A stretch of 64,000 bases of DNA from Candidatus Sulfotelmatomonas gaucii (GTDB lineage Bacteria; Acidobacteriota; Terriglobia; Terriglobales; Acidobacteriaceae), in contig OKRB01000108.1 in assembly GCA_900290245.1 (NCBI GenBank), positions 47,541 through 111,540 on the forward strand. Direction: 5' to 3'. The notes beneath the pieces were generated by a model. That model did not search any database. It saw only the letters and a program-made list of their open reading frames with translations, and was not told the origin of the DNA. This document shows positions 33,078 through 52,284 of the stretch, piece after piece; within the stretch, counting starts at the first letter, position 1; every line of letters starts with the position of its first letter. Both the position numbers and the translations under genes were made by a program.

Positions 33078-34403
33078 ATGAAGAAATCAACCCTCATTTT
33101 GATTTGCATGATCGTCGCGCTGACCGTGCCCCTCGCTCCCGCGCAAGCCCCCGGCGCATCCGTCGCGAAAAACGACGCCGAGCTCGCCAAACAAATCCGC
33201 GCCGACCAATCGCTGCGCCATGTGCATCAGATGGCGCTCGACCTGCTCAAGGGCGGCCTTAACGCCGGGAGCGGTTACAGGCAGGTCTGGATTCGCGACA
33301 TGAATACCTTCATTGAATTGTCGCTTGAAGCCAATCCGCCCGCGCTCCTCCGCGACGCGCTGCTCACGTTCTTCAAGTTTCAAGGCCCGCTGGGTGACAT
33401 CGTCGACGGCTACCGCACCCTCGACCCCGCGCAAAAGGAGAAGCCCTACCGCCTCACTCCGCTCGCTCCCGGGCTCACCTCCTACAAGAACACCGTCGAG
33501 GTTGACCAGGAATCCTCGCTGGTGCAGGCCGTCTACAAGTACGTCACCGTCACCGGCGATCGCTCCATCCTCGATGAGCGCATCGCCGATCGAACCGTCC
33601 GCGATCGCATGGGCTTTGCCATGCAATACCTCCTCACCCAGCGCTACGACCCGCAGCACGATCTGATCTGGAGCGCCACCCGCGCCGATTGGGGCGACGT
33701 GCAGCCGGAGTCGCCGCGAGGCGTCTGGCTCGACGCAAATTCGCATCGCGCCCTCTCGGTCTACGACAATGCCATGCTGCTCCTCGCCATCAATGACTAT
33801 CTCCAGCTCATCGGCCCAAACGATCCCCAGGCCGCTCATTGGCGCAAAACCCGCGATGAACTCAAACGAAACATCCGTAAATACCTCTGGGATGCGAAGG
33901 ATCAGAAGTTCATCCCGCATGTCTATCTCGACGGCTCGCCGTTCCCCAAAGATTTCGACGAGAACGCGATCAACTACCACGGCGGTACGGCGGTCGCCAT
34001 CGAAGCCGGCGTCCTCACACACAAGGAGGTCGCTCACGCCGTCACCCGCATGGATGCCGATGTGCGCGACGCTGGCGCAGCCACCATCGGCCTCACCATG
34101 TACCCGGCGTACCCGCTTGGCTTTTTCAAGAATCCGGAATTGACCGCGCCCTACACCTACCAGAACGGCGGCGACTGGACCTGGTTCGGCGGGCGCATGG
34201 TCCAGGACCTTGTCGAAGAGGGATACGCCGCCGATGCCTATCGCGAGATCCGGCCGATGATCGCGCGCGTCGAGCGGGTCAAAGGCTTTTACGAGTGGTG
34301 GACGCGCGACAACCACCCCCGCGGCTCCGCCAATTTCCGCGGCTCCGCCGGCGTCCTTGGCCGCGCCATCGAATTACTCGAAGCCTGGGCCGAGAAGCAT
34401 TAA
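33078..34403 (+). CDS. Secreted six-hairpin (alpha/alpha)6 glycosidase-like protein
   Basis: Signal peptide; VWIRD, DWGDVQPE, YQNGGDWTW and FYEWW motifs typical of inverting six-hairpin GHs; family not resolved. Confidence 0.6.
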   Translation: MKKSTLILICMIVALTVPLAPAQAPGASVAKNDAELAKQIRADQSLRHVHQMALDLLKGGLNAGSGYRQVWIRDMNTFIELSLEANPPALLRDALLTFFKFQGPLGDIVDGYRTLDPAQKEKPYRLTPLAPGLTSYKNTVEVDQESSLVQAVYKYVTVTGDRSILDERIADRTVRDRMGFAMQYLLTQRYDPQHDLIWSATRADWGDVQPESPRGVWLDANSHRALSVYDNAMLLLAINDYLQLIGPNDPQAAHWRKTRDELKRNIRKYLWDAKDQKFIPHVYLDGSPFPKDFDENAINYHGGTAVAIEAGVLTHKEVAHAVTRMDADVRDAGAATIGLTMYPAYPLGFFKNPELTAPYTYQNGGDWTWFGGRMVQDLVEEGYAADAYREIRPMIARVERVKGFYEWWTRDNHPRGSANFRGSAGVLGRAIELLEAWAEKH

Positions 34404-34529
34404 GCGGTCTCTGGAGAATCCAAAGATAAGCATTCCGTCCAGGTGGGGCCGGGTGCCCGTTGCACATTGTTAGAGCCTTGGATATGGGTATAGAATCGTG
34501 CCGTCTTTCCAGTCAAAGAGGAGGTTCCA

Positions 34530-35057
34530 GTGAAATCGACAAGCTATTCGAGCCTGTTGCCGAGAGTTCTCGTCGTTCTTGGAGACCTGGGCATGCTGGT
34601 TGGCGCGATTGATCCAATGGAGGGATCGGCAGTGATTCTTCCGGGCTGTGGCTTGGTGGCGCTTGGCACCTACCTCGAGCGAGGCGAACGCCGGTTGATT
34701 ACTTACAGGGTTTTGGTCTTCATTCTAGTTGCGGTTGGAGTGGGAGCGCTGTGGGCGTTGAGCAGTCTCGGAGGCTTTGGAGGCGGCTCTGGACATTCCA
34801 TGTGGTGGGGAATGCTGATTCTGCCCTATCTGATTGGCTGGTCGATGGGGATTTGGGGACCGGGGTCTCCGCGCTGGATGCTATGGCTCGGCATGGCGGT
34901 CAGTCTTTGGTATCTTGCACTGGCCGTGATGGTCCAGCTGCATCCGCGGCCGTCGCACAACCTTGTGAGTGTGGTCATGGGCGCCCTCGGCTTGCTGACC
35001 ATCGGTGGTTGCATCAGCCGGCTAAGAAACCAAGCCTCCACAAGCGGCACCTCTTAG
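34530..35057 (+). CDS. Hypothetical multi-pass membrane protein
   Basis: GAGGAGG RBS, GTG start, about six hydrophobic segments. Confidence 0.65.
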   Translation: MKSTSYSSLLPRVLVVLGDLGMLVGAIDPMEGSAVILPGCGLVALGTYLERGERRLITYRVLVFILVAVGVGALWALSSLGGFGGGSGHSMWWGMLILPYLIGWSMGIWGPGSPRWMLWLGMAVSLWYLALAVMVQLHPRPSHNLVSVVMGALGLLTIGGCISRLRNQASTSGTS

Positions 35058-35100
35058 CACCAAGTTGGAGCCAACACCCAACCGCACTTTGAGCTGCTTT

Positions 35101-36180
<1,080 letters not shown>

Positions 36181-36280
36181 TCAATGGCACAATGCCACTC
36201 ATTCCAAACTGCAGCCGCGAAGAGATCGAAAAATCCGTGCAAGTTCTTTTTCGATTGAAAAAATGGAGGCCTCAAGCCGC

Positions 36281-36898
36281 CTAAGCCTTTACAAACGTCG
36301 TTAACCCCCGGCGGGTGCGCTCGCGAAGTTGGCAGTTCCGCAATTCATCCGCGAGAGACTCCGGGTGAGGTACTCCATAGATTGAAAAATTCTCGAGTTC
36401 CGCATCGGATGAAAACAGATGCAGGGATGCCTGGCCAAGCAAACGCTTCCCCAGCGGTTTGCGCAACTCAAAATGGTCAATGCGAAACAGTTCGAGCGAC
36501 TCCTGAACTTTCGAAAGCAGGCCGCGCTCCAGTTTGATCCGTTGCGTTGTGATCTCGTAGTGGACTCTTCGGCTCCGCAGGTAGTAATGGATACCGATCG
36601 CTGCGCACGCGATTAGAAAACACAGGCTCAAATAAGCGATGCTGCGATCGGAGCTCCCAATGTACCCGGCCTTCATCAGGTATCCGACAATGATTGCGAC
36701 GGCGATCACGACGACAAACGGTGTCAGCTGACCGACGGTATAGATAACTGCCGGATGCCCGACGAACAGATCCTTTTCGGTTTCCTGCTCCTTTGTCGCT
36801 GAATACGCAGTCAGATCTGTGTTGCAGAAACGGCACTTGATTGCGGCGGCCTTGATGGTCTCACCGCAGACTGGACAGGTTTTCGTGTCAGCGTCCAT
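36281..36898 (-). CDS. Zinc-ribbon plus bacterial PH-domain membrane protein
   Basis: CPVCGETIKAAAIKCRFC; two TM segments; YEITTQRIKLERGLLS..ESLEL.RI pattern of bPH_2-like domains. Confidence 0.75.
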   Translation of the reverse strand: MDADTKTCPVCGETIKAAAIKCRFCNTDLTAYSATKEQETEKDLFVGHPAVIYTVGQLTPFVVVIAVAIIVGYLMKAGYIGSSDRSIAYLSLCFLIACAAIGIHYYLRSRRVHYEITTQRIKLERGLLSKVQESLELFRIDHFELRKPLGKRLLGQASLHLFSSDAELENFSIYGVPHPESLADELRNCQLRERTRRGLTTFVKA

Positions 36899-36916
36899 CC
36901 GTCTTTCCTCTCAAGC

Positions 36917-36944
36917 CAGAATCATAACCCCAGAATCATAACCC
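36917..36944. repeat. Exact 14-bp tandem duplication upstream of the PH-domain gene
   Basis: cagaatcataaccc x2; contains TATGAT on the minus strand. Confidence 0.8.
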
Positions 36945-36983
36945 ATGCCCTCGCCCGTCATGGCAGAGAACGAGGACCTCCGC

Positions 36984-37565
36984 TCACTCGACTTCGCCTG
37001 TGACGATGTCTGGAGCAAGCTCCGCTTCCCGCTCCGCAGACTCGGCCTCGCTCACGCCCATCGCCCTCACCACGCTGCTCAAGTGATGCCCGCGACGCAT
37101 CGTCATCTTTCCGCTGCGGCAAAGCTCCAGGACGCGCCCTTCGTCCTCGCGCAGAATCTCAATGAGCCCTTCTATCTTGCTTTCCACGCCGGTCATCTCA
37201 ATGATGAGCGACTCCGACGTCAGATCGACGATGCGCGCGCGGAAAACCTCTGCCAGATCGAAAATCTGCCCGCGGTTCTGCGGAGTCGCCGCAATCTTGA
37301 TCAGCGCCAGCTCGCGCGTCACTGAAGGCGCCTGGGCAATGTCGTCCACGTCAACAACATTCTCCAGTTTAAACAAGCTTGCGCGGATGCGGTGCCCTGC
37401 CTCCGCCGATGCCTCGGCGACGATTGTCATGCGGGAAAGTCCGGCGCGTTCGCTGCGCCCCACCGTCAGCGAAATGATGTTGATATTCAACCGCCGAAAC
37501 AGCGACGCGACGCGCGTCAGCACGCCCGGCAAATCTTCAACGTATGCAACAAATGTATGCAGCAT
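36984..37565 (-). CDS. ilvN: Acetolactate synthase small subunit
   Basis: VEDLPGVLTRVASLFRRLNINIISL, RELALIKI, FRARIVD, RSG. Confidence 0.95.
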   Translation of the reverse strand: MLHTFVAYVEDLPGVLTRVASLFRRLNINIISLTVGRSERAGLSRMTIVAEASAEAGHRIRASLFKLENVVDVDDIAQAPSVTRELALIKIAATPQNRGQIFDLAEVFRARIVDLTSESLIIEMTGVESKIEGLIEILREDEGRVLELCRSGKMTMRRGHHLSSVVRAMGVSEAESAEREAELAPDIVTGEVE

Positions 37566-37568
37566 AAA

Positions 37569-37677
37569 GCAGCTCCTAGCCTTTAGCTCCTAGCTTTTAG
37601 CCTTGCTTGTCAACCTCCGCTACTGCTCGTCGCCACATTCATGCAGCTAGGAGCTAGAAGCTAGCAGCTAGAAGCTG
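37569..37677 (-). repeat. Inverted AGCTNCT heptamer arms at the ilvB-ilvN junction
   Basis: Arms 37643-37677 and 37569-37602 pair on the mRNA strand over 33 positions with 4 mismatches and 4 G.U pairs. Confidence 0.8.
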
Positions 37678-37683
37678 TGTTTG

Positions 37684-39519
37684 TTACTTGTCTTCCGCCG
37701 TCTCTTCCAGCGGATCCTGCTCCGGCCTGCGAATCATCTCGTGCAACGCGCTTCCCGCCGGAATCATCGGGTACACCGAGTCTTCCTTCTCCACCATAAA
37801 GTTCAGCAGAAACGCTCTCGTAGACGAACGCGCTTCGTTCACGGCCGCCTCAACTTCGCTGCGTTTCCGCACCGCGCGTCCGGGGATTCCGTGCGCATCC
37901 GCCAGCTTCACAAAATCCGGGCTCACCAGCGGCGTGGCCTCGTAGTTGCGCTCGTAGAAGAACTCCTGCCACTGCCGCACCATGCCCAAGTAGCCGTTGT
38001 TGATCACGGCGATGTTGATCTTGATCTTCTCCTGCACAATGGTGGCCAGCTCCGCAGCTGTCATCTGGAATCCGCCATCCCCCGCAATCACCCACACTTC
38101 TTTCTCCGGGCAGGCGATCTTTGCTCCAATCGCCGCCGGCAACGCGAATCCCATCGTTCCCAAGCCGCCGCTGGTGATCAGCGTGCGCGGCTTCTCGTGC
38201 TTGTAGTACTGCGCCTCCCACATCTGGTGCTGGCCCACGTCGGTCACAATAATCGCGTCGCCCGCGGTCATGCGCCACAAATCGTGCATCACGTGCGCGG
38301 CGTAAAGATGTCCGAGGTCGGGCAGGTTCTTGATGTCTCGCACAGTCACCGCGCCCTTGCTCGCTTCAATCGTCTTGAGCCACACGGATCCATCGCGCCC
38401 TCCCTGGTTCCGAGTCCCGATACGCGGCAGCAGTTGCTCCAGCACTTCGCGCAGATCGCCCACCAGGGCCACATCAACTTTTACATTCTTGTTGATCTCC
38501 GCGGGATCGACTTCAATATGAATCTTCTTCGCCTTCATCGCGTAGTCCGTCAACTTGCCGGTCACGCGATCGTCGAAGCGCATGCCGCACGCGATCAGTA
38601 GATCGGCCTCCTGGATCGCGTGATTCACCCAGCTTTCCCCATGCATGCCCATCATGCCCAGGCAGAGCGGATGCGACATGGGGAATCCCCCGATCCCCAG
38701 CAACGTGAGCCCTACCGGAATCTGCGCGCGCTCGGCCAGCGTTCGCACTTGCTCCATCGCGCCCGAATCCATCACCCCGTGGCCCGCCAGGATCACCGGC
38801 CTTTTCGAGTTGCGGATCAACTCGGCAGCCTCCGCCAGTCCCGACTCCTCCACGCGCAGCATGGGATGCGGCTGATAGGGGCGCGGTTTAGCCGCTTCAA
38901 AATCGAAGATCGCCGAAGCTTGCTGCGCATCTTTTGTGATGTCCACTAGCACCGGCCCGGGCCGCCCCGACTTGGCAATCTGGAACGCATGCCGAAGCAC
39001 CTTCGCCAGGTCCTCCGCCTTGTTCACCAGAAAGTTGTGCTTTGTCACCGGCAGCGTGATTCCCGTGATGTCCACTTCCTGAAATGCGTCGGTACCCAGC
39101 ACCTTGCTCGATACGTTGCCCGTGATGCACACAATGGGAATCGAATCCAGCATCGCCGTGGCAATGCCCGTCACCAGGTTCGTCGCGCCCGGGCCGCTGG
39201 TGGCGACGGCGACGCCCACCTTGCCCGATGCGCGCGCGTAGCCGTCGGCCATGTGCGCCGCGCCCTGCTCGTGCCGCACCAGCACGTGCTTCACAGGAAA
39301 CTTGCGCAACGCGTCGTACGCCGGCAGAATGGCCCCGCCCGGATAGCCGAAGACATCCGTCACGCCCTCGCCGGCAAGCGTGGCCCACAGAATCTCCGCG
39401 CCCGTAAGCCGCGTCGGCGTGTTCAGGTGCGCATTCGCATCTGCCGCATCTGCATTCGGTGCTGCCGCGTTTGCGTTCGATGCGTTCTCTTTCGTCTTCG
39501 CGTTTCCCTTGTGTCCCAT
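37684..39519 (-). CDS. ilvB: Acetolactate synthase large subunit
   Basis: FGYPGGA, RHEQGA, TSGPGATN, DVGQHQMW, GDGGFQM, NNGYLGMVRQWQ; AAGGAG RBS at ATG 39519. Confidence 0.97.
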   Translation of the reverse strand: MGHKGNAKTKENASNANAAAPNADAADANAHLNTPTRLTGAEILWATLAGEGVTDVFGYPGGAILPAYDALRKFPVKHVLVRHEQGAAHMADGYARASGKVGVAVATSGPGATNLVTGIATAMLDSIPIVCITGNVSSKVLGTDAFQEVDITGITLPVTKHNFLVNKAEDLAKVLRHAFQIAKSGRPGPVLVDITKDAQQASAIFDFEAAKPRPYQPHPMLRVEESGLAEAAELIRNSKRPVILAGHGVMDSGAMEQVRTLAERAQIPVGLTLLGIGGFPMSHPLCLGMMGMHGESWVNHAIQEADLLIACGMRFDDRVTGKLTDYAMKAKKIHIEVDPAEINKNVKVDVALVGDLREVLEQLLPRIGTRNQGGRDGSVWLKTIEASKGAVTVRDIKNLPDLGHLYAAHVMHDLWRMTAGDAIIVTDVGQHQMWEAQYYKHEKPRTLITSGGLGTMGFALPAAIGAKIACPEKEVWVIAGDGGFQMTAAELATIVQEKIKINIAVINNGYLGMVRQWQEFFYERNYEATPLVSPDFVKLADAHGIPGRAVRKRSEVEAAVNEARSSTRAFLLNFMVEKEDSVYPMIPAGSALHEMIRRPEQDPLEETAEDK

Positions 39520-39534
39520 AACGGCTCCTTTAAA

Positions 39535-39703
39535 AGCTGCTAGCCTCAAGCTCCTAGCTTCTAGCTCGTTCTAGTCACTCTCAAGAACTCTCATTTCAGC
39601 AACCCGTCTTGCTCGTCCAACTTCCAAAACCAAACTGGTTCAGCCTATGCCGTTAGTTTGGGTTTCTGGCTATCAGCTAGAAGCTAGCAGCTAATAGCTG
39701 CTT
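39535..39703 (-). repeat. Inverted AGCTNCT heptamer arms at the ilvD-ilvB junction
   Basis: cagctagaagctagcagct (39674-) versus agctcctagcttctagct (39549-); ~100 nt spacer. Confidence 0.75.
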
Positions 39704-39704
39704 T

Positions 39705-41393
39705 TTACGTTGTCGCTCCGACCGACGCCGACGCCACCCGATCCACGTACTTGCGAAACACACCCTTCGGCCAGCGCAACGCCGGCGGCTTGAAGTCTTT
39801 GAGCCGCGCCGCCATCTCGGCATCGCTGATCTCCACGTTCAGCGTGCGCTTGGGAATATCAAACGCGATGATGTCGCCTTCGCGCACCGCCGCGATCGGC
39901 CCACCCACGAACGCCTCGGGCGCCACGTGCCCCGCGGTAAATCCGCGCGTCGCGCCGCTGAATCGTCCATCGGTAAGCAACGCAACTTGCGCGCTCAGTT
40001 CGGCGTTCGACGAGATGGCCGCAGTCACCTGCAGCATCTCGCGCATCCCTGGGCCGCCCTTCGGCCCTTCGTAGCGAATCACCACCACGTCGCCGGGCTT
40101 GATGCCACCGGCCTGCACCACTTTGAAGCAGTCTTCCTCGCAGTCAAACACGCGGGCAGGCCCGCGATGCTCGTACTTGCCCGCCGCCGCAATCTTCATT
40201 ACACAGCCTTCGGGCGCGAGATTCCCTTTCAGAATCACCAGGCCACCGTTGGGCTTGATGGGCTTTTCGAAAGTGTGAATGACGTCCTGGCCCGGAGTCT
40301 CGTTTGCCGTCGCAGCTTCTTCGGCGAGCGTCTTGCCGCTGATGGTGAGTGCCGAACCGTCCGCATGGCCCGCTTCGATCATGCGCTTCGCCAGCAGACG
40401 CGAACCGCCCGCTGCCTGGTAATCGGATGCCACATACTTACCCGCTGGCGTGAGAGAACAAATGTACGGCGTGCGCGATGAGATCGCGTCAAAATCGTCG
40501 ATATTGAGCTCGACACCGAGCTCGCGCGCGATTGCCAGCAGGTGCAGCACCGCATTCGTCGATCCGCCGCTCGCCGCCACGCTGGCAATGGTGTTCTCGA
40601 GAGATTTGCGAGTGATGATCTGCGAAGGCCTGCGATTGGCGCGGACAGCATCCATGAGAATGTGGCCCGCCTTGCGCGTCGCTTCCAGCTTTTCAGGAGC
40701 GGTGGCCGGAACGCCCGAAAGCTCAATCGGCGAAATACCCAGGATCTCGCCGCTCATCGCCATGGTGTTGGCTGTGAACTGGCCCCCGCATGCGCCCGCC
40801 CCGGGACAGGCATTCGCTTCCAGTGCCTCGAGGCCCGCATCGTCGATGCGCCCCGCGGCATACGAGCCGATGCCTTCAAAAACATTCTGAATCGTGATGT
40901 CGATTTTTTCGCCATGGGGGCCGTTCAGCTTGCCCGGCGCAATCGATCCGCCGTAGTACATCATCCCCGGAATATCCAGCCGGCACAGCGCCATGATGAT
41001 GCCCGGCATGTTCTTGTCGCATCCGCCGATACCCACCAGGCCGTCAAAAAGATTGCCGCGCGCCATCAGTTCAATCGAATCCGCAATCAGCTCGCGGCTC
41101 ACCAGCGACGCCTTCATGCCCTGCGTGCCCATGGTGATGCCGTCGGAGATGGTCACAGTGTTGAACTCCATCGGCGTGCCGCCGGCCTCGCGAATGCCCT
41201 GCTTCATCGCCTCTGCGATCTCGCGCAGGTGCACGTTGCACGTGCCGATCTCCGTCCACGTGTTGGCAACGCCAATAATCGGCTTGTGCAAGTCTTCTTT
41301 TTTGAATCCCGCCCCACGCAGATACGACCGCGCCGCCGCGCGGCTTGGGCCCTCAGTCAACGGAATGCTTTGTCGCTTGCCTTCGATAGTCAT
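39705..41393 (-). CDS. ilvD: Dihydroxy-acid dehydratase
   Basis: GTCNVH, TISDGITMG, GGCDKNMPG, GACGGQFTANTM, GGPGMREML, TDGRFSG, HVAPEA. Confidence 0.97.
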   Translation of the reverse strand: MTIEGKRQSIPLTEGPSRAAARSYLRGAGFKKEDLHKPIIGVANTWTEIGTCNVHLREIAEAMKQGIREAGGTPMEFNTVTISDGITMGTQGMKASLVSRELIADSIELMARGNLFDGLVGIGGCDKNMPGIIMALCRLDIPGMMYYGGSIAPGKLNGPHGEKIDITIQNVFEGIGSYAAGRIDDAGLEALEANACPGAGACGGQFTANTMAMSGEILGISPIELSGVPATAPEKLEATRKAGHILMDAVRANRRPSQIITRKSLENTIASVAASGGSTNAVLHLLAIARELGVELNIDDFDAISSRTPYICSLTPAGKYVASDYQAAGGSRLLAKRMIEAGHADGSALTISGKTLAEEAATANETPGQDVIHTFEKPIKPNGGLVILKGNLAPEGCVMKIAAAGKYEHRGPARVFDCEEDCFKVVQAGGIKPGDVVVIRYEGPKGGPGMREMLQVTAAISSNAELSAQVALLTDGRFSGATRGFTAGHVAPEAFVGGPIAAVREGDIIAFDIPKRTLNVEISDAEMAARLKDFKPPALRWPKGVFRKYVDRVASASVGATT

Positions 41394-41410
41394 TGTGCTC
41401 GCTTCGCTCG

Positions 41411-41596
41411 CCAGCTATTAGCTTCTAGCTCCTAGCCTCTAGCTTGTTCATGCTGCCGTTAAGAATTCTCTCTATCCGCCTTTTCTTTGAAGGGTGCGGG
41501 CTTTAGCCCCTGAGGGAAGTTTCCCGCCCGCTTGCTGCCGCCGCTGTTTGCCCGCTGACACCAGCTAGTAGCTGGAAGCTAGGAGCTAGAAGCTGC
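41411..41596 (-). repeat. Inverted AGCTNCT heptamer arms at the leuD-ilvD junction
   Basis: Arms 41561-41596 (containing the leuD stop) and 41411-41445; spacer holds a gaagggtgcgggctttagcccc REP-like half element. Confidence 0.75.
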
Positions 41597-42204
41597 TCTC
41601 GCCTTCAGCCACCCTGCCTCATCATGCTGGGTCTCAAACTTGTCCAGCGCTGCCGCATGCCGCAACGTAAGTCCGATATCATCCAGTCCTTCCAGCAAAC
41701 AGAACTTGCGAAATGGATCGAACTCGAACTTCGCGTTGAATCCGCGCCCGTCCGTCACCGTCTGCGCCTCGAGCGAAACGGTAAGCTGATAATTCGCAAT
41801 CTGCTGTGCGTTCTTCAGCAGTTCCCCAACCTCTCGTTCGCTCAGCCGCACGAGCACGATGCCGTTCTTGCCCGCATTCGAAAAGAAAATATCGGCGAAG
41901 GTGGGTGCGATCACCACGCGGAATCCGTAGTCGCTCAGTGCCCATGCAGCATGCTCGCGGCTCGATCCGCAGCCGAAATTCTTGTCCGCAATCAGGATCT
42001 TTGCGCCCTTGTAGCGCGGATCGTTGAGAACGAAATCCGCAATCGGCTTTCCGTCCGGCGTCTGCCGCCAGTCGAAGAACAGAAAATCGCCGTAGCCGGT
42101 GCGTTCGATCCGCTTCAAAAACTGCTTGGGAATGATCTGGTCGGTATCCACGTTGGCGCGGTCGAGCGGCGCCGCCAGCGCGGTCAATGTCTTGAAAGGT
42201 TCCA

Positions 42205-42205
<1 letters not shown>
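41579..42205 (-). CDS. leuD: 3-isopropylmalate dehydratase small subunit
   Basis: [40 protein letters not shown]. Confidence 0.98.
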
Positions 42206-43643
<1,438 letters not shown>

Positions 43644-43647
<4 letters not shown>

Positions 43648-44354
43648 GATCCTGCTCCAGGGCTTGCGTGCGATCCGGTTGCGCCGAGGCCGAAGATTTC
43701 TGGTCCCATATCCAACATGACTCCATTCGGCTGCACGATCGTCGCGAGCGAAAAGTTGTAGCGATATCCATGCGTGCCCGCGTATGGATCCGTGCCAATG
43801 GTGACAAGCCAGCGATGCAGACTGGACAGAAACGGCGAAGGAATCTTTTGCCAGCTCAGCTTCTCGCTCGTGTAGATCCATAGGTGACTCTTCGACGGCG
43901 TGGTATTGCTGGTGATCGAGTCGATTCCGGCGAAGATGATGACGGCGGGATCGGTCCTGGTATCGACCCAAAGCATGCCCCGATTGTCACAATCATGCGG
44001 CACGCATCCATCGATCGAGACATAACGATCCTCATCGAGAATTGCGTTACCGGGAACCCCCATGAAGACTTGCATCAACTCCGGCAGCGGCGTCAGTTTC
44101 CAATGGTCGTACCAGAACCATTGCTTCTGCGGAAAAGATTCCTTGAGCAAAGAAGCGAACCGCGCATCCATGTTGATCCGGTTTTCCTGACCGATTGGCA
44201 TACCCGAGGTCGACGGCGGGCCGGGCGCGGCAAATGCGCGCGTCCATGCGGCGTTGCGGCTCGCGTCCGTTGTCGGGGCCTGTGCAGGAACGCCCTGACA
44301 TCCTCCTCCGATAGCTCCCAGCAGCAGACCGATAATAAGTAGTTTGAAATTCAC
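43644..44354 (-). CDS. Putative lipoprotein with Ivy-like CxPHDC loop
   Basis: GGAGAGG RBS, GTG start, signal ending GGGC; [13 protein letters not shown]. Confidence 0.6.
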
Positions 44355-44389
44355 TCGCGTGTGTTCCTCTCCGCGACAATTATTGAAAA

Positions 44390-45481
44390 TCACGCATTCA
44401 CCAAATGCTGCTTCACCGTCTCCCGCACTTTCGCGCCCATTTCCTTCGTCGAGAGCACGGTGATGCCTTGCGTGTTGCCGCGGGCGAGATCGGGTGTGCG
44501 GAAGCCCTGCTCCAGCACCTTGCGCACCGATGACTCAATAGCAGTGGCCTCGGCTTCCAGTCCGCCCGAGTGGCGCAGAACCAGCGCTCCGGTCAGAATC
44601 GCGCCCAGCGGATTCGCCAATCCCTTGCCCGCGATGTCCGGCGCCGACCCATGCACCGGCTCATACAAATTCACCTTGCCGCCAATGGTCGCCGAGGGCA
44701 GCATGCCCAGCGAACCTGTGATCACTGCCGACTCGTCGCTCAGAATGTCGCCGAACAGGTTCTCCGTCAGCACCACATCAAAATCGCACGGTCGGTTCAT
44801 CAGGTGCATCGCCATCGCATCCACATATTGGTGCTCCACCATCACGCCCGGGAACTCCTTCGCCACCTCGTCCACCGTCGCGCGCCACAATTGTGAAACC
44901 TCCAGCACGTTCGCCTTGTCCACGCTCGTTAATCTCTTGCGGCGCTTGGCCGCCAACCCGAACGCGATCCGCGCCACGCGCGCCACTTCCTCGCGCGTAT
45001 AACGCATCGTGTTCCACGCCTCGCCCTTCGCCTTGTTCCACTCGCGCGGTTTGCCAAAGTAGAGCCCACCCAGCAGCTCGCGCACGAACAACACATCCGC
45101 TCCGTCCACGATCTCTGGCCGCAAGGGGCTGTTCACCGCCAGCACTTTGAACGCGAACGCAGGCCGCAGATTGGCAAACCCGCCTAGTGCCGCGCGAATC
45201 GCCAGCAGCCCGGCCTCGGGCCGTTTATCCGGAGGCAGCGAATTGAACTCGTTGCCGCCCACCGCGCCCAGCAGCACCGCATCGGCCGCAAGCGCCGCGT
45301 CCAGCGTGTCCTTGGGCAGCGGAGTTCCGTCCTGCACAATCGCCACGCCGCCAATGCGCTTTTCGGTAAATACAAAATCGTGTCCACCCTGCGAGGCGAT
45401 GTCTTTCAGTATCGCAACCGCTTCGTTGGTCACTTCCGGCCCGATGCCGTCACCGGCCGTCACTAAAATCTTCAGCTTCAT
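44390..45481 (-). CDS. leuB: 3-isopropylmalate dehydrogenase
   Basis: GDGIGPEV, ANLRP, VDKANVL, ENLFGDILSDE, YEPVHGSAPDIAG. Confidence 0.98.
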   Translation of the reverse strand: MKLKILVTAGDGIGPEVTNEAVAILKDIASQGGHDFVFTEKRIGGVAIVQDGTPLPKDTLDAALAADAVLLGAVGGNEFNSLPPDKRPEAGLLAIRAALGGFANLRPAFAFKVLAVNSPLRPEIVDGADVLFVRELLGGLYFGKPREWNKAKGEAWNTMRYTREEVARVARIAFGLAAKRRKRLTSVDKANVLEVSQLWRATVDEVAKEFPGVMVEHQYVDAMAMHLMNRPCDFDVVLTENLFGDILSDESAVITGSLGMLPSATIGGKVNLYEPVHGSAPDIAGKGLANPLGAILTGALVLRHSGGLEAEATAIESSVRKVLEQGFRTPDLARGNTQGITVLSTKEMGAKVRETVKQHLVNA

Positions 45482-45495
45482 TCGTCAGTTCCCGA

Positions 45496-45600
45496 TTCTC
45501 AGTTGTCAGTTGTCAGTAGTCAGTTTTCAAACGGTCGCGGCGGCTGGTTCCCCTGGTCCCTTGGTCCCTTGGTCCCTCGTTCCCTTGCTCTTTTGTTCCC
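45496..45600 (-). repeat. Two short tandem tracts between leuA and leuB
   Basis: Period-8 plus-strand CCC tracts at 45550-45600 (mRNA AAGGGACC) and a period-7 tcagttg tract at 45496-45526. Confidence 0.8.
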
Positions 45601-45608
45601 TGTCTTTT

Positions 45609-46805
<1,197 letters not shown>

Positions 46806-46891
46806 GTGTGCGCCTGCTCAAGTTCTTGCTGTGTGCCTGCCGGGGAAAACCGCCGTCCTGCTTACTATCCTATTTTCGCCGATTCCCCTCC

Positions 46892-46937
46892 ATAAGACAA
46901 AGTTATAATTCTTTTAGATTAGATTACAATTGCTTAT
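46892..46937. promoter_or_regulatory. Two LysR-type T-N11-A boxes in the leuA/LysR divergent intergenic region
   Basis: ATAA-gacaaag-TTAT (46892-46906) and ATTA-caattgc-TTAT (46923-46937). Confidence 0.65.
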
Positions 46938-47044
46938 AGAGGCAGCCTTTAGCTCTCAGCTTCTAGCCCGGCAGATGCACCCGAAACTGCGTCAACAGGG
47001 CGGCGTGCAGGTTGCCTGTGGCATCGGCTCATCCGGAGGATGCC

Positions 47045-47968
47045 ATGGAACTCGCCCAACTCGAGGCTTTTCTCGCCGTCGCGGAAGAACGTAGTTTCTC
47101 CCGCGCCGCCGTCCGCCTGCACCGCACCCAGCCCGCCGTCAGCCAGGTCATCCGCAAGCTGGAGCAAGCAGTCGGCGAAACGCTCTTCGACCGCGCCGCG
47201 CGCGACGGCTCCCTCACCGCCGCCGGCGTGTTGTTGCGTGACTATGCGCTCCGCCTCCTCGCCCTCCGCCGCGAAGCCTCCAGCGCCATCGACGAGCTCA
47301 AAAGCCTCGAGCGCGGCCACCTGCAACTGGCCGCCAACGAGTACACCTGCATGTACCTGTTGCCCGCCATCGATGCCTTCCGCCGCGAATTCCCCAACAT
47401 CGACGTCACCGTGCAGCGCATGCTGGCCTCGCGCATCCCCGAGGAGCTCAGCCTGCGCAGCTTCGAGCTCGGCGTCATCTCCTTCCGCCCCGACCCCGCG
47501 CAGATCCGCTCCATCGCCGTCTATGGAGACAGCCTCGCTCTCATCGTCAGCCCGCGCCACCCACTCGCCGGCAAAAAGAGTGTCTCCATCCGCGATCTCG
47601 GCAACGAAAACTTCATCGCTCACAATGTTGCCTCGCCGCTCCGCCGCAAGGTCATCGAAGCCTTCCAGCGCCACCGCACTCGGCTGCACATGGGCATCGA
47701 GCTGCCCACCATTGAGGCCATCAAGCGATTTGTGGCCATGGGCAATGGCGTGGCGCTGGTTCCCCACCTCACCGTGGCCCGCGAACTCGAAACGGGAGAC
47801 CTGGTGCGCGTACCAGTCGACGAACTGGATGTGCGCCGCGTGCTCCGCATGGCACATCGCCGCCAGGCCACACTCTCCTACGCAGCCAAAGCCTTTCTCC
47901 ATACGCTCAGGAATCTCGCGCGCGAAAAAGGACCGCCCTTCTTCTACCATGTCGAACGGGCGGGGTGA
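47045..47968 (+). CDS. LysR-family transcriptional regulator
   Basis: MELAQLEAF..VAEERSFSRAA..LHRTQPAVSQVIRKLE; GGAGG RBS. Confidence 0.95.
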   Translation: MELAQLEAFLAVAEERSFSRAAVRLHRTQPAVSQVIRKLEQAVGETLFDRAARDGSLTAAGVLLRDYALRLLALRREASSAIDELKSLERGHLQLAANEYTCMYLLPAIDAFRREFPNIDVTVQRMLASRIPEELSLRSFELGVISFRPDPAQIRSIAVYGDSLALIVSPRHPLAGKKSVSIRDLGNENFIAHNVASPLRRKVIEAFQRHRTRLHMGIELPTIEAIKRFVAMGNGVALVPHLTVARELETGDLVRVPVDELDVRRVLRMAHRRQATLSYAAKAFLHTLRNLAREKGPPFFYHVERAG

Positions 47969-47973
47969 AAAGC

Positions 47974-48155
47974 AGGGACCGAGGGGACTGCGGGACTACG
48001 GGACTCAGCAGACCGCGCGCTCAGAGAGCAAGTATTGATGTTATTGCAACGAAGACCATGGAGTGCGGTATTCCGAACGGCCAACGCCACGAGGCGTCGT
48101 GGCTCGCGAACTTCTGCATTGCGCAGTCCCGTCGTCCCGCAGTCCCCCGGTCCCT
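47974..48155. mobile_element. MITE-like element with ~32-bp terminal inverted repeats made of 8-nt units
   Basis: agggaccgaggggactgcgggactacgggact (47974-48005) versus agtcccgtcgtcccgcagtcccccggtccct (48125-48155). Confidence 0.55.
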
Positions 48156-48351
48156 TGCTCCCGCGTTCCCTTGCCGTGCGTCTATAGCCTCAGCAGCTTT
48201 CATACGTGCCCTGGGCTCGCGACCCGGCCCCGGCCATTTACAATGCTTTGAGCGGGGCCCGTAGGGAATTCGGCGCGCCGGACCAGAGTGCGGAAATCGG
48301 CATGCTCGTTGCCGGCCGCCCAGTTGTGCAAAATAAGAGGATCAGGATCGA

Positions 48352-48954
48352 ATGAAGAAGATCGCCTTTCTAGTCTCTCTGTTGGCCGCGTTCGCGGCCG
48401 CAGCCAGCGCGCAGGAGAGCCGCCAGGACATCAGCCTTAGCGGAACCGCGCTGATTGAGCCATTCATGGCTTCTTCCACCACCGTGCAGGTGCACTCCAC
48501 CACCGCCTACGGCGCCGCGCTCAGCTATCGCTTTATGCTCACGCCAAATAGCGCTCTCGAGGCCAGCTATGGCATCACCTACCAAAACAGCCTCCACTAC
48601 TACGTAGTCCCCAACAACTACAAGGTCCTCACCCGCACCGAGGCAATCACGGGTGCTTACGTGCGCTCCTTCGTATTCAAGAACTGGAATCCCTTCGTCG
48701 AAGCGGGCCCGGGCGGCTTCATCTTTATGCCCATCCGCAACTCCGGCACCACGAATCTGGATGTGAAGCGGCAGACTGAGGTTGGCGGAGTCTACGGCGC
48801 CGGTTTTGCCTATGAAATTAGCCCCAGCTTCGACATTCGCGCCGAATACCAGGGCTGGGTCACTAAGGTGCCGACCTTCGGGGATTCGCAATTTACCACC
48901 AATCGCTGGTACAACATCTCCGTTCCCATCGTCGGCGTGGCTTACCACTTCTAA
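48352..48954 (+). CDS. Outer-membrane beta-barrel protein (OmpA/porin-like)
   Basis: Signal peptide; alternating beta strands; NPFVEAGPG, DIRAEYQG, terminal GVAYHF. Confidence 0.85.
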   Translation: MKKIAFLVSLLAAFAAAASAQESRQDISLSGTALIEPFMASSTTVQVHSTTAYGAALSYRFMLTPNSALEASYGITYQNSLHYYVVPNNYKVLTRTEAITGAYVRSFVFKNWNPFVEAGPGGFIFMPIRNSGTTNLDVKRQTEVGGVYGAGFAYEISPSFDIRAEYQGWVTKVPTFGDSQFTTNRWYNISVPIVGVAYHF

Positions 48955-48978
48955 AAACAGGGATCAGGGGTCAGAAAG

Positions 48979-49010
48979 CCTAAGGGATGGACCGAGGTCC
49001 ATCCCTTAGG
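48979..49010. terminator. Perfect 15-bp hairpin between convergent genes (bidirectional terminator candidate)
   Basis: cctaagggatggacc-ga-ggtccatcccttagg, flanked by agaaa and tttct. Confidence 0.7.
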
Positions 49011-49035
49011 CGTTTCTGGATTCTGTGCTCCGCCC

Positions 49036-49854
49036 TCAGATCTCTGCTTCCCGGTACCGCCCCAGCTCCTTTACCATTCCGCAGTGCGCGCGCAGCGCGT
49101 CCAAAGAGTGCGCTCCCTCTTCGCTTGAGCCGATCTGGTAATCCACGTAGAAGATGTACTCCCACGGCTTGCCCTGCACCGGGCGCGACTCGATCTTGGT
49201 CAGGTTCGTGCCCATTGCGCTCAGCGCGCTCAGCGCCGCCACCAGCGACCCCGTCCGGTTTTCCAGTGAAAAGGCCACGCTCATCTTGTTCGCCTCGGGA
49301 TCGGTCTCCGCTTCTGCCTCCCGGTGCACCAGGAAAAAGCGCGTATAGTTCTCCGCATCGTCCTCAATTTCGGTCTCGAGAATTTCAGCGCCATAATATA
49401 TAGCCGCCTGCTCGCTGGCAATCGCCGCCGCGTGCTTGTCGCGCAGCGCCACCAGTTGCTTCACGCTCCCCGCGGTATCGTAAAAGGCAACCGCCTTCAT
49501 CTTCTTGTGTTCCGCCAAAAAGCGCCTGCACTGCGCCAGCGCCACGGCATGCGAAAACACGCGGTCGATCTCGTCCAGCGACGCGCCTCGTATCGCAATC
49601 AGGTTGTGCCGGATGCGCAGCAGCGTCTCCCGCACGACTTTCACATCGTGTTTCAGCAGGAGGTCAAAGTGCTCCAGCACGGAACCGGCCAGGCTGTTCT
49701 CGATGGGAATCACCGCGGCATCCGCTGCTTTCGAATCCAGCGCCGCAAACACCTCTGCCGAGAGCGCGCACGGCAAAATCTCCGCGCCTGCCACCAGCTT
49801 CAGCGCCGCCTCGTGGCTGAATGACCCCGGTTCCCCCTGAATCGCGATCTTCAT
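49036..49854 (-). CDS. pheA: Prephenate dehydratase
   Basis: IAIQGEPGSFS, PIENSLAGSV, SHAVALAQC, NYTRFF, NLTKIESRP. Confidence 0.95.
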   Translation of the reverse strand: MKIAIQGEPGSFSHEAALKLVAGAEILPCALSAEVFAALDSKAADAAVIPIENSLAGSVLEHFDLLLKHDVKVVRETLLRIRHNLIAIRGASLDEIDRVFSHAVALAQCRRFLAEHKKMKAVAFYDTAGSVKQLVALRDKHAAAIASEQAAIYYGAEILETEIEDDAENYTRFFLVHREAEAETDPEANKMSVAFSLENRTGSLVAALSALSAMGTNLTKIESRPVQGKPWEYIFYVDYQIGSSEEGAHSLDALRAHCGMVKELGRYREAEI

Positions 49855-49898
49855 GCTGTCGCTTCGTCCCCTTGCTGAGCCCTGCAACAATCCACTGC

Positions 49899-49943
49899 TG
49901 TCATCCTGAGTGAGGTCGCCGCGGCGACCGAGTCGAAGGATCT
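49899..49943 (+). repeat. Palindromic element family B
   Basis: tgtcatcctgag-tga-ggtcgcc-gc-ggcgacc-gagt-cgaaggatct. Confidence 0.7.
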
Positions 49944-50039
49944 CCGGCTGTCTTTCCCTCTCGCACCATACCACACGCCCATCAGCCTGTTACTCCGCAC
50001 CTACGAGTGCCGGAAAACCTGGACTTGTCTCTTAGTCCT

Positions 50040-50180
50040 CTTTTCCCTCGCTACCTTGCTCCCTTGTTCCCTCGTTTCCTGCTCCTCGTTCCCTCGTTCT
50101 TCAATATCGCCGCGCAATCCACTAAACGAGCTAGCAGCTCGGAGCCAGAAGCTGGAAGCTCGCAACGTTCCTCGCTCCCT
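50040..50180 (-). repeat. Mixed short tandem tracts between the UbiA-family gene and pheA
   Basis: Period-8 ttccctcg/ctccttg units (50040-50098) and AGCT-type units (50128-50162). Confidence 0.6.
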
Positions 50181-50181
50181 G

Positions 50182-51048
50182 TTATCTCTTCATCCACAAG
50201 TCCGCCGAAACAAATCCCAGAAACACCATCGCGATCACGCCATTCATTGTGAAAAACGCGGCATTCAGCCGGCGCAAATCGCGCGGCGACACGATGGAGT
50301 GCTCGTAAGCCAGCAGCAATCCCACCGCAGCCACTCCCAGCCATCCGGCCAGGCCAAAATCAAACAGCCGCCCGAACCATACCAGCAGCGCCAGCATCGC
50401 CAGGTGCATCAGCCGCGCCGTCCAGAACGCAACCGCAACCCCGCTCGCCTGCGGCAGGCTATGCAGTCCCGCCGTGCGGTCGTGCTCATAATCCTGGCAC
50501 GCATAAAGAACATCGAATCCCCCCGCCCATAGCGTCACCGCCGCCGTCAGCACAAGGATCCGCGGATCCAGGCTGCCGCGCACCGCAATCCATGCCGCCG
50601 CGGGCGCCAGTCCCAGCGCCAGTCCCAGGCCAAAGTGCGACCACTGCGTCACTCGTTTCAGATAGCTGTAGCCCAGCAGCACCACCAGCACCACGGGAGT
50701 CAGTTCCAGCGCCAGCCGGTTCAGCTCGGCGGCCGCCGCCATAAACACGGCCACGGCAATGCACGTAAACCCCAGCACGAAGCCCCGCGACAGCAGCCCC
50801 GCCGGAATCGCGCGACTCTTCGTTCGCGGATTTTCCGCGTCCAGGTCCGCATCAGCCCAGCGATTAAATGCCATTGCGGCCGACCGCGCCGCCACCATGG
50901 CCACCACAATCCAACCTACCGTCCGCCAGCCCGGCAGCCCGTCTGCCGCCAGCAGCATCGCTGTCAGCGCAAACGGCAGCGCGAAGATCGAGTGCTCCCA
51001 CTTGATCATCTCCAGCGTGGTGTGAATTTTCTTCAGGATCCCGGCCAT
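50182..51048 (-). CDS. ubiA: UbiA-family polyprenyltransferase (MqnP-like)
   Basis: IKWEHSIFALPF, AMAFNRWADADLDAENPRT, GGFDVLYACQD. Confidence 0.85.
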   Translation of the reverse strand: MAGILKKIHTTLEMIKWEHSIFALPFALTAMLLAADGLPGWRTVGWIVVAMVAARSAAMAFNRWADADLDAENPRTKSRAIPAGLLSRGFVLGFTCIAVAVFMAAAAELNRLALELTPVVLVVLLGYSYLKRVTQWSHFGLGLALGLAPAAAWIAVRGSLDPRILVLTAAVTLWAGGFDVLYACQDYEHDRTAGLHSLPQASGVAVAFWTARLMHLAMLALLVWFGRLFDFGLAGWLGVAAVGLLLAYEHSIVSPRDLRRLNAAFFTMNGVIAMVFLGFVSADLWMKR

Positions 51049-51188
51049 GAACCACCCTCTTTAATCTAATTGAGCCGGCGACACCCGCCGCTCCACGCCT
51101 GCGGCCAACTCCAAAGCCCAAAATTGGCTGCCCCGCCAACCCTTCTCCCGGCGCCTGCCAACGCAGATCGCTGAAGATCACTCCCCAT

Positions 51189-51204
51189 CGTGACATCCAT
51201 CACC
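51189..51204. promoter_or_regulatory. CRP-type box, near consensus
   Basis: CGTGA-catcca-TCACC (8/10 match to TGTGA-N6-TCACA), 57 nt before ATG 51262. Confidence 0.55.
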
Positions 51205-51261
51205 AATGCCAAACCTCAATCAGTGGAATGATTAGCCTCAACGTTCCTGTGGAGGAGATCC

Positions 51262-51702
51262 ATGGCAGCCTCTAGCCCCCGAGAACGACCCCTGGCGCAA
51301 ATGGACCCAAAAGGTTTTGTCGGTGACCCGGAACTGATTCGACTGCTTGAACAGCATTCGGTTCCCGCACCCTGCGATGCGGATGGTGCTCTGTTCCGGC
51401 AGGGCGACCTGCCCGCGGGCTTGTACATCTTTCGCGACGGCATGGTTACGTTAAGCATGATTTCCGACGATGGCCATTCGCTCTTCGCCGCGCAGGCGCT
51501 GCCCGGTTCCCTGCTCGGCCTTCCCGCCGTCGTCAGCAATCAACCGTACACAATCACTGCGACAGCGTGCGCCGGCGCGCGAGTCTCCTTTATCAGCCGG
51601 CAAGACTTCTCTCGGCTCATGTTGTCATTCCCTCCGTTGTCCGTCAGGATTCTGAAGGTCCTTGCTGCCCAGGTCCGCAGCGCCCGCCGCGCCCTCTACT
51701 AG
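51262..51702 (+). CDS. Stand-alone cNMP-binding (Crp sensor) domain protein, no HTH
   Basis: LFRQGDLPAGLYIFRDGMV, PGSLLGLPAV..QPYTITA, C-helix-like LSVRILKVLAAQVRSARR then stop; GGAGGAG RBS. Confidence 0.85.
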   Translation: MAASSPRERPLAQMDPKGFVGDPELIRLLEQHSVPAPCDADGALFRQGDLPAGLYIFRDGMVTLSMISDDGHSLFAAQALPGSLLGLPAVVSNQPYTITATACAGARVSFISRQDFSRLMLSFPPLSVRILKVLAAQVRSARRALY

Positions 51703-51767
51703 CTCGTGTCGACCTCTCGCAACACACTTCCGGCTCGTCCCTGACCGGGAATCACGCGGGACTCTAC

Positions 51768-51783
51768 TGTGATTTACATCACA
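51768..51783. promoter_or_regulatory. Perfect CRP consensus box
   Basis: TGTGA-tttaca-TCACA in the intergenic region before the second cNMP-domain gene. Confidence 0.8.
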
Positions 51784-51876
51784 CAACCCGAGCGACAACC
51801 GATGCGATGATATCTGCGTCGCCTCAATCGGGCTCGGGCCGGATAAACTCCTAATTTTCATAAGGAAAGCAAAGCT

Positions 51877-52284
51877 GTGCCGCCAGATTCATCAGCATTT
51901 GTCGCCGATCCGGAGCTACATCAAGCCCTTCAGGAACGGTCTACCCCCGTCCCGTGTGAGACAGATCGTCTTCTCTTCCAGCAAGATGCGCCGGCAGATG
52001 GCGTTTACCTCCTCCAACAGGGCGCGGTCAAGCTTACGATGAACTCCCACGATGGACGAACGATCTTCTCCATCCAGGCGATGCCTGGTTCCGTGCTCGG
52101 CCTTCCAGCGCTCGTCAGTGATCAACCTTACTCGCTCAGTGCGATTGCCCGTGCCGAAGCGCAGGTAAGTTTCGTCAGCCGCGCGGATTTCTTCGCGATC
52201 ATGAACGCGCATCCCGCACTTTCTCTCAAAATATTGCAGGTTCTTGCCGCCGAAGTTCGCACCGCCCGCAAGGCCCTCTTTTAG
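51877..52284 (+). CDS. Stand-alone cNMP-binding (Crp sensor) domain protein, paralog of 51262
   Basis: LFQQDAPADGVYLLQQG, PGSVLGLPALVSDQPYSLSA, LSLKILQVLAAEVRTARK; AAGGA RBS. Confidence 0.85.
   Translation: MPPDSSAFVADPELHQALQERSTPVPCETDRLLFQQDAPADGVYLLQQGAVKLTMNSHDGRTIFSIQAMPGSVLGLPALVSDQPYSLSAIARAEAQVSFVSRADFFAIMNAHPALSLKILQVLAAEVRTARKALF

Follow-up and report, generated by a model that had tools for sequence, protein, structure and literature searches.

Heptamer-armed inverted repeats between the ilv/leu cistrons of Candidatus Sulfotelmatomonas gaucii as probable gene-less members of a class widespread in Acidobacteriaceae

The stretch of DNA analysed here, hereafter the window, comprises 64,000 nt of the genome of Candidatus Sulfotelmatomonas gaucii (a Terracidiphilus-like member of the family Acidobacteriaceae; 5.29 Mb, 59.4% G+C), corresponds to positions 47541-111540 of its contig and includes an ilv/leu operon on the minus strand. 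At three junctions of this operon, leuD-ilvD, ilvD-ilvB and ilvB-ilvN, the sense strand reads stop codon, (AGCUNCU)n, spacer, (AGNAGCU)n, start codon, which amounts to a pyrimidine-rich left (L) arm and a purine-rich right (R) arm in inverted orientation. These arms do not appear to be a control device made for the ilv/leu operon. They belong to a class of tandem heptamer arrays that keeps a fixed geometry throughout the genome, turns over quickly among relatives and lacks a strand-specific pairing signature, and in a congener an element with the same arms and a small PF05635 gene fills a site that is empty in this genome. We explain the three arm pairs, with moderate confidence, as gene-less copies of a class of heptamer-armed inverted repeats that is widespread in Acidobacteriaceae, lies between cistrons and resembles the intervening sequences (IVSs) of 23S rRNA.

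Genome-wide geometry and turnover among relatives

A simple pattern search recovered 165 arms with an AGCY core in the genome, 157 of them non-coding. Under strict pairing, 30 pairs run from L to R and a single pair runs from R to L. A sensitive partner search gave the same picture: the partner of an L arm lies to its right in 50 cases versus 3, and that of an R arm to its left in 32 versus 10, so that 82 arms show the fixed, convergent geometry and 13 do not. The constant order that a first-pass annotation of this DNA had seen at the three junctions is confirmed. Strict pairs lie mainly between co-directional genes (26 of 30, compared with 58% of comparable intergenic regions), where the L arm usually contains the stop codon or begins 3-7 nt after it and 5-25 nt separate the end of the R arm from the next start. 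The same arms occur at no fewer than 54 unrelated junctions, and about 70 arms have no detectable partner. Comparison of the 30 spacers, all against all and by BLAST against the genome, revealed no shared interior, with the exception of a repetitive extragenic palindromic (REP)-like repeat in the leuD-ilvD spacer.

One AGCT-type pair was found directly upstream of a tRNA gene (G000:C52:106902-107060, where G000 denotes this genome), so the elements are not limited to junctions of protein-coding genes. Elsewhere, rpsD and an FtsL-like open reading frame (ORF) (G000:C84:11450-12361 and G000:C36:13240-14035) each lie between the R arm of one element and the L arm of its successor; the bracketing arms are mutually complementary, and long-range pairing across a whole cistron is possible in principle. 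When small genes enclosed by arms were sought in this genome, the wide-gap pairs proved to be only such R and L arms of neighbouring junctions around ordinary genes, as at rpsD, and were rejected as candidates.

The AGCT type is one of many 7- and 8-nt array families in the genome, in which we found 353 non-coding period-7 arrays in all; the arrays consist of at least three head-to-tail units, are dispersed and are mainly intergenic. Stop-adjacent period-7 arrays carry YAG in 143 of 164 cases, at a median distance of 4 nt, and start-adjacent ones carry CTR in 79 of 99, at a median distance of 13 nt. Every 7-nt array family in this genome obeys a single grammar: (YAGNNNN)n where the array comes after a stop, (NNNNCTR)n where it comes before a start. 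In the AGCTNCT family, the palindromic CTAG places a TAG every 7 nt in both arms and hence a TAG in all three frames, on either strand.

The arms turn over quickly. At the ilvB-ilvN junction of 21 relatives, six have AGCT-type pairs and two have other heptamer pairs (CAGTGGT/ACCACTG and CAGTGAA/TTCACTG), some have a single array, and about nine junctions are short and repeat-free. Even within the genus, where IlvB is 84-88% identical, all three junctions vary in the presence and the unit type of their arrays, and at leuD-ilvD a different array adjoins the same conserved anchor sequence. Of the 121 genera in the family, 43 have the AGCTNCT pattern itself, as does every scanned genome of this genus (reversed control, 0-1 hits); outside the family it was found in 2 of about 230 genomes, and it is nearly absent from the remaining phylum. 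The earlier view of a device specific to ilv/leu is not supported by these data, since the arms are dispersed across genome and family and the junctions differ among relatives.

PF05635 cassettes in relatives and a filled/empty site

AGCTNCT arms bracket a PF05635 ORF at four loci (in G013, G082, G062 and G008). Each locus is laid out as (AGCTNCT)n, an ORF of 113-131 aa and (AGNAGCT)n, and lies directly after dprA or sucC. The association extends to other heptamers: inverted arms flank 80 of the 90 PF05635 genes examined in the family, with period 7 in 75 of the 80, and the 5' arm unit of these period-7 cassettes is YAG-type in 51 and NAG-type in 62 of the 75. With kinship ignored in both tests, AGCTNCT arrays are present in 40 of 95 genomes that have PF05635 versus 3 of 26 that do not (p = 0.005), and PF05635 protein distance tracks heptamer distance (Mantel rho 0.22, p = 0.001).

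One filled/empty site pair involves the congener G062 (locus L094, G062:C12:10100-11400), which carries a PF05635 cassette with AGCTNCT arms between sucC and sucD. There, sucC runs into the L arm and terminates with GCAGCTTCTAGCTCCTAG, the PF05635 ORF follows, and the sucD start is preceded by AGCTAGGAGCTgtttttcATG. At the same site in this genome (G000:C4:5526-5897), the two genes share the overlap ttaaATG and there is no insert. About 430 nt in G062 replace the TAAATG overlap, and the C-terminus of sucC becomes ...KAASSS. In the window, leuD closes with the identical 18 nt, GCAGCTTCTAGCTCCTAG, and the tail AASSS. Comparison of the filled with the empty site indicates that the insert brought an upstream stop and a downstream Shine-Dalgarno (SD) sequence, as seen at leuD and ilvN.

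In three genera, an AGCTNCT-armed PF05635 cassette is found directly 3' of dprA (L092, L093 and L095, in G013, G082 and G008), which indicates that some cassettes are old and locus-stable, unlike the gene-less pairs with their fast turnover. Several PF05635 copies in the genus are fragmented or contain in-frame stops (e.g. G389:C46, G390:C42 and G383:C27), a sign that the gene is still decaying between its arms.

Under the explanation that we favour, a full element would consist of (YAGNNNN)n, a small PF05635 gene (encoding an Avd-like four-helix bundle of the 23S rRNA IVS family) and (NNNNCTR)n, placed after a stop codon and ahead of the next start. The AGCTNCT version would bring its own adaptors, namely a three-frame TAG in both arms that can end the upstream reading frame and, in the 3' arm, AGGAGCU or AGAAGCU, in many cases with a U-rich stretch after it, which would be usable as the SD of the downstream gene. 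With a built-in stop and SD, insertion between the cistrons of an essential operon would be tolerable, and the leuD stop and the ilvN SD would lie inside arms because AGCTNCT elements carry these adaptors. Gene-less copies with unique spacers could have originated by cassette decay, by arm-only copying or by slippage after insertion, all of which are candidates. A bolder proposal, which we put forward tentatively and consider doubtful as it stands, is that arms and PF05635 gene together form an undescribed kind of insertion element that settles between cistrons, carries its own stop and SD adaptors, is removed by RNase III and has its 7-nt unit read by a PF05635 pentamer, the rRNA IVS being its best-known case. 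If so, gene-less copies would explain much of the excess of heptanucleotide repeats in bacteria, and this genome, in which hundreds of arrays occur without the protein, would be an orphan case provided by nature.

Folding, selection and competing explanations

The arms at the three ilv/leu junctions are present in the order first reported. This is confirmed by the sequence itself, by Tandem Repeats Finder, which reports period-7 arrays at all six arms, and by matches to the consensus AGCTNCTAGCTNCTAGCT with at most two mismatches, of which the window holds 21 compared with 0.01 in shuffles (Table 1). The spacers measure 118 nt (leuD-ilvD), 101 nt (ilvD-ilvB) and 42 nt (ilvB-ilvN), and the stems extend over 18-33 aligned positions, giving long terminal inverted repeats like the stems of about 20-30 bp that characterize IVS-like cassettes. 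When the sense strand is folded, the two arms of each of the three junctions pair with each other (-55.5, -66.9 and -90.4 kcal/mol; z = -4.3, -3.2 and -4.2), in agreement with the mRNA hairpins proposed earlier. At ilvB-ilvN, the 33 aligned positions comprise 25 Watson-Crick pairs, four G.U, three A.C and one transversion, which reproduces exactly the earlier count of eight non-Watson-Crick positions, four of them G.U. The ilvN SD, AGGAG, which is 7 nt away from the ATG, forms part of the stem in the minimum free energy structure, and the L arm of leuD-ilvD supplies both the leuD stop and the C-terminal tail AASSS. Two lone arms, also noted before, are present as well; an unrelated G-rich octamer array (50043-50099) comes after the L-type one.

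Table 1. Arms, spacer and neighbouring genes in the window (window coordinates; SD, Shine-Dalgarno sequence)
Feature	Position	Strand	Remarks
L arm leuD-ilvD	41563-41594	minus	AGCTTCT AGCTCCT AGCTTCC AGCTACT AGCT; contains leuD stop TAG (41579-41581)
Spacer leuD-ilvD	41446-41562	minus	unique; holds REP-like palindrome 41494-41522
R arm leuD-ilvD	41413-41444	minus	AGCTAGA GGCTAGG AGCTAGA AGCTAAT AGCT; ends 19 nt before ilvD ATG
L arm ilvD-ilvB	39668-39699	minus	begins 5 nt past ilvD stop TAA (39705-39707)
R arm ilvD-ilvB	39535-39566	minus	SD AAGGAG (39525-39530) separate, outside arm; ilvB ATG 39517-39519
L arm ilvB-ilvN	37645-37677	minus	33 nt; begins 6 nt past ilvB stop TAA (37684-37686)
R arm ilvB-ilvN	37570-37602	minus	33 nt; last unit contains ilvN SD AGGAG (37573-37577); ilvN ATG 37563-37565
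Lone L-type arm	50128-50162	minus	AGCTTCC AGCTTCT GGCTCCG AGCTGCT AGCT; about 20 nt past a stop
Lone arm	46944-46970	minus	AGAAGCT GAGAGCT AAAGGCT; divergent region upstream of leuA
leuD	41579-42205	minus	NCBIfam
ilvD	39705-41393	minus	NCBIfam
ilvB	37684-39519	minus	NCBIfam
ilvN	36984-37565	minus	NCBIfam

The genome encodes RNase III (rnc). Stems that fold, an encoded RNase III and the precedent of the Coxiella IVS together suggest that the operon transcript is cut, and we consider the element stems to be probable RNase III substrates. By analogy with rRNA IVSs, the enzyme would cut the 18-33 bp stem, excise the spacer and part the cistrons, and the downstream fragment would keep the half of the R arm that bears the SD. 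The ilvN SD would be masked by the stem until the latter is cut or unwound.

A scan of the spacers and junctions found no promoters and, on the sense strand, no intrinsic terminators, which would consist of a compact GC-rich hairpin with a small loop and a U-tract behind it; R arms are followed by T-runs only somewhat more often than controls (9 of 44 versus 6%). Rfam gave zero matches at E <= 0.1 across window positions 34000-52000. On the antisense strand (plus strand, 39686-39702 and 37664-37678), single arms can fold on themselves since AGCT is palindromic, and the T-run that follows each of them, which complements the A-run after the stop codon, yields terminator-like sites against antisense transcription. 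The REP-like palindrome ggtgcgggctttagcccctgagggaagt inside the leuD-ilvD spacer recurs at no fewer than 11 other places in the genome and represents a repeat nested in a repeat.

On the minus strand, the gene order is leuA, leuB, an unknown ORF, leuC, leuD, ilvD, ilvB, ilvN, a second unknown ORF and ilvC, with gene names assigned by NCBIfam. Neither the 249-aa ORF in the leuB-leuC interval (43644-44393) nor the 205-aa ORF between ilvN and ilvC (36281-36898) has an NCBIfam match. The longest leuC frame (42205-43971) overlaps the 249-aa ORF; its leuC match does not begin until residue 112, which makes a true start of leuC further downstream probable. Two more junctions of the operon contain tandem repeats. 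At leuA-leuB (45499-45601), the sense strand carries (CCAAGGGA)n after the leuA stop and (CAACTGA)n before the leuB start; these arrays are not mutually complementary, and each obeys the after-stop or before-start grammar without pairing. The junction after ilvN (36916-36944) has 2.1 copies of the 14-nt unit CCAGAATCATAACC.

The first-pass annotation had read the G.U pairs as a sign of selection on RNA, and the constant order of the arms might be read in the same way. Neither argument holds. The three A.C mismatches at ilvB-ilvN would be G.U on the opposite strand, which makes the comparison four against three. An inverted pair is the same on both strands, so its fixed order is uninformative about the transcript; what is non-trivial is the use of just one of two possible geometries, which relatives show in their PF05635 cassettes as well. 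Of 44 co-directional pairs, 31 have the better fold on the sense strand, but sense and antisense do not differ significantly (Wilcoxon p = 0.11). The arms do not match a conserved cis-regulatory hairpin, of which conservation at orthologous junctions, compensatory changes and an excess of G.U would be expected. What stands of the functional interpretation is its structural part, comprising the hairpins, the constant order, an SD within a stem and a stop within an arm; selection specific to ilv is not supported. Translational coupling or segmental mRNA stability is possible as a side effect.

Several results weigh against the favoured explanation. PF05635 was found neither by HMM search of this genome nor by tblastn with four proteins of the family; the best tblastn candidate, on contig C48, was rejected as a repeat protein on the opposite strand. 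PF05635 is present in 27 of 31 genomes of the genus; the arms here persist without the protein, as orphans, and the link to cassettes rests on relatives, which have the ORF in the loop between the same arms; the spacers of 42-118 nt in the window hold none. The association and Mantel statistics are uncorrected for phylogeny. The spacers show no homology to each other or to PF05635 genes, so that neither copying in the manner of MITEs (miniature inverted-repeat transposable elements) nor decay in place is demonstrated, and no target-site duplication is visible at the filled/empty sucC-sucD site. A MITE model was rejected on the same two grounds, the lack of a common interior among the 30 spacers and of a target-site duplication at sucC-sucD. 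The pairing statistics are unfavourable as well: on the sense strand of the 44 co-directional pairs there are 75 G.U and 81 A.C (p = 0.69), and the complementarity score of cognate arms, 19.1, is little above the 17.2 of non-cognate arms of the same family, leaving little pair-specific covariation. Without an excess of G.U over A.C and without such covariation, the pairing does not appear to be under strong selection at the RNA level.

The same figures bear on hairpins purpose-built for the ilv/leu mRNA, which would couple the cistrons, the SD being unmasked by the upstream ribosome, or stabilize mRNA segments. Stems that fold well, with the ilvN SD inside one of them and arms that abut stop and start, are what such hairpins should show, as is the better fold of the sense strand in the majority of pairs, and in about a quarter of pairs the R arm lies within 12 nt of the start, so that the arm is itself the SD. 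We nevertheless judge this explanation quite unlikely, because the G.U excess and cognate-specific complementarity expected of it are wanting, the junctions are conserved neither in the 21 relatives nor within the genus, and identical arms recur at the many unrelated junctions and beside the tRNA gene. Geometry is a further obstacle: as the L arm begins 6 nt past the ilvB stop, a terminating ribosome would reach only about 3 nt into the arm and open about 3 bp, which would leave AGGAG unexposed and makes simple unmasking improbable.

Two other explanations were weighed. The arrays could be home-grown, produced neutrally by slippage wherever a 7-nt period is tolerated, with the partner arm made by template switching and the likeness to PF05635 cassettes being secondary. 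This would agree with the unique spacers, the many unrelated heptamer and octamer families in one genome, the different heptamers beside a conserved anchor at the same junction of sister species, the roughly 70 partnerless arms and the lack of PF05635 here. We regard it as unlikely, since only one of two geometries occurs across all families, an identical arm type encloses a gene in relatives, where 80 of 90 PF05635 genes are armed, the filled/empty site is clean, and slippage alone does not account for matched arms 40-140 nt apart. Alternatively, the arrays could be sites for an oligomeric protein that reads YAG at 7-nt spacing, or DNA cruciforms, with a role in transcription or in the nucleoid. 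HutP, which binds UAG-N4 three times, offers a precedent, and a HutP-like reader of such repeats was rejected because PF09021 is absent from the genome. The YAG/CTR core is conserved at a 7-nt period in all families, and PF05635 proteins, Avd relatives that have a four-helix-bundle fold and form pentamers (PMC10053308), co-vary with the heptamer. This co-variation is also explicable by co-inheritance, and with neither a HutP homologue nor a PF05635 gene in the genome and no candidate binder identified, we consider a protein-site role very unlikely. Gene-less copies of an armed, IVS-like class thus remain our preferred explanation.

Significance and relation to known systems

Heptanucleotide repeats have been known since 2007 to be over-represented between bacterial genes, and no cause has been accepted (PMC4692102). 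The present arms add a new lineage and a new unit to the inverted heptamer arrays of Xanthomonas, a known class that awaits an explanation. The ilv/leu locus is an unusually readable case, in that arms in an essential amino-acid operon provide the stop of one gene and the ribosome-binding site of another. The family-wide data tie the arms to PF05635 (Avd-like) and thereby offer a testable candidate partner and a testable RNA fate, excision by RNase III. For annotation, two warnings follow: AASSS-like C-terminal tails and SDs at such junctions derive from repeats, and one should avoid taking a long hairpin between cistrons of these genomes for an operon-specific regulator.

Among known repeats, TAACTGA arrays in Beggiatoaceae, Cyanobacteria and Bacteroidetes are almost exclusively direct, with one indirect case in 170 sets (MacGregor 2015, PMC4679880). 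They share with the present arms an intergenic position just upstream of starts, a tandem heptamer organization and the presence of stop codons, and they have been proposed to act post-transcriptionally; they differ in their unit, and no paired geometry has been reported for them. REPs, bacterial interspersed mosaic elements (BIMEs) and MITEs resemble the arm pairs as short, dispersed intergenic palindromes after stops that form mRNA hairpins and turn over rapidly, and this genome also has REPs and a REP-associated tyrosine transposase (RAYT). The arm pairs differ from them in being built of 7-mers in tandem instead of one imperfect palindrome whose head is conserved, in their unique interior and in showing no target-site duplication.

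In Coxiella, the 23S rRNA IVS has a 28-bp stem cut mid-stem by RNase III, an S23p (PF05635) ORF and, beside the ORF, strain-variable tandem heptamers, and ORF-bearing IVSs, often with a decaying ORF, are known from Coxiella, Leptospira and Salmonella (PMC4990558). PF05635 proteins are Avd-like, and the solved Xanthomonas representative is a pentamer (PMC10053308). The arm pairs share the long inverted-repeat stem with these IVSs, and in relatives cassettes of the same architecture have AGCTNCT arms. In contrast to the rRNA IVSs, they lie between protein-coding cistrons instead of in helices 25/45 of 23S rRNA, contain no ORF in this genome and have arms that consist entirely of heptamer array; cleavage by RNase III, established for the rRNA IVS, is for the present elements suggested by analogy.

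The closest counterparts are the GGGAATC heptamer arrays of Xanthomonas, of which 70-75 convergent inverted pairs per genome can form stem-loops of unknown function (Rehm et al. 2015, PMC4692102). Like these arrays and the short tandemly repeated repetitive (STRR) sequences of heterocystous cyanobacteria, the arms described here are tandem 7-nt repeats that are dispersed, mostly intergenic and located near the upstream ORF's 3' end, and, as in Xanthomonas, their presence is poorly conserved between sister species. The two classes differ in phylum and in unit, AGCTNCT/AGNAGCT having no G-tracts and no G-quadruplex potential, although other families in this genome are G-rich. The Xanthomonas arrays show no strand preference, whereas the arms of this genome follow a strict sense-strand grammar relative to genes, supply stop codons and SDs and, in relatives, enclose a PF05635 gene.

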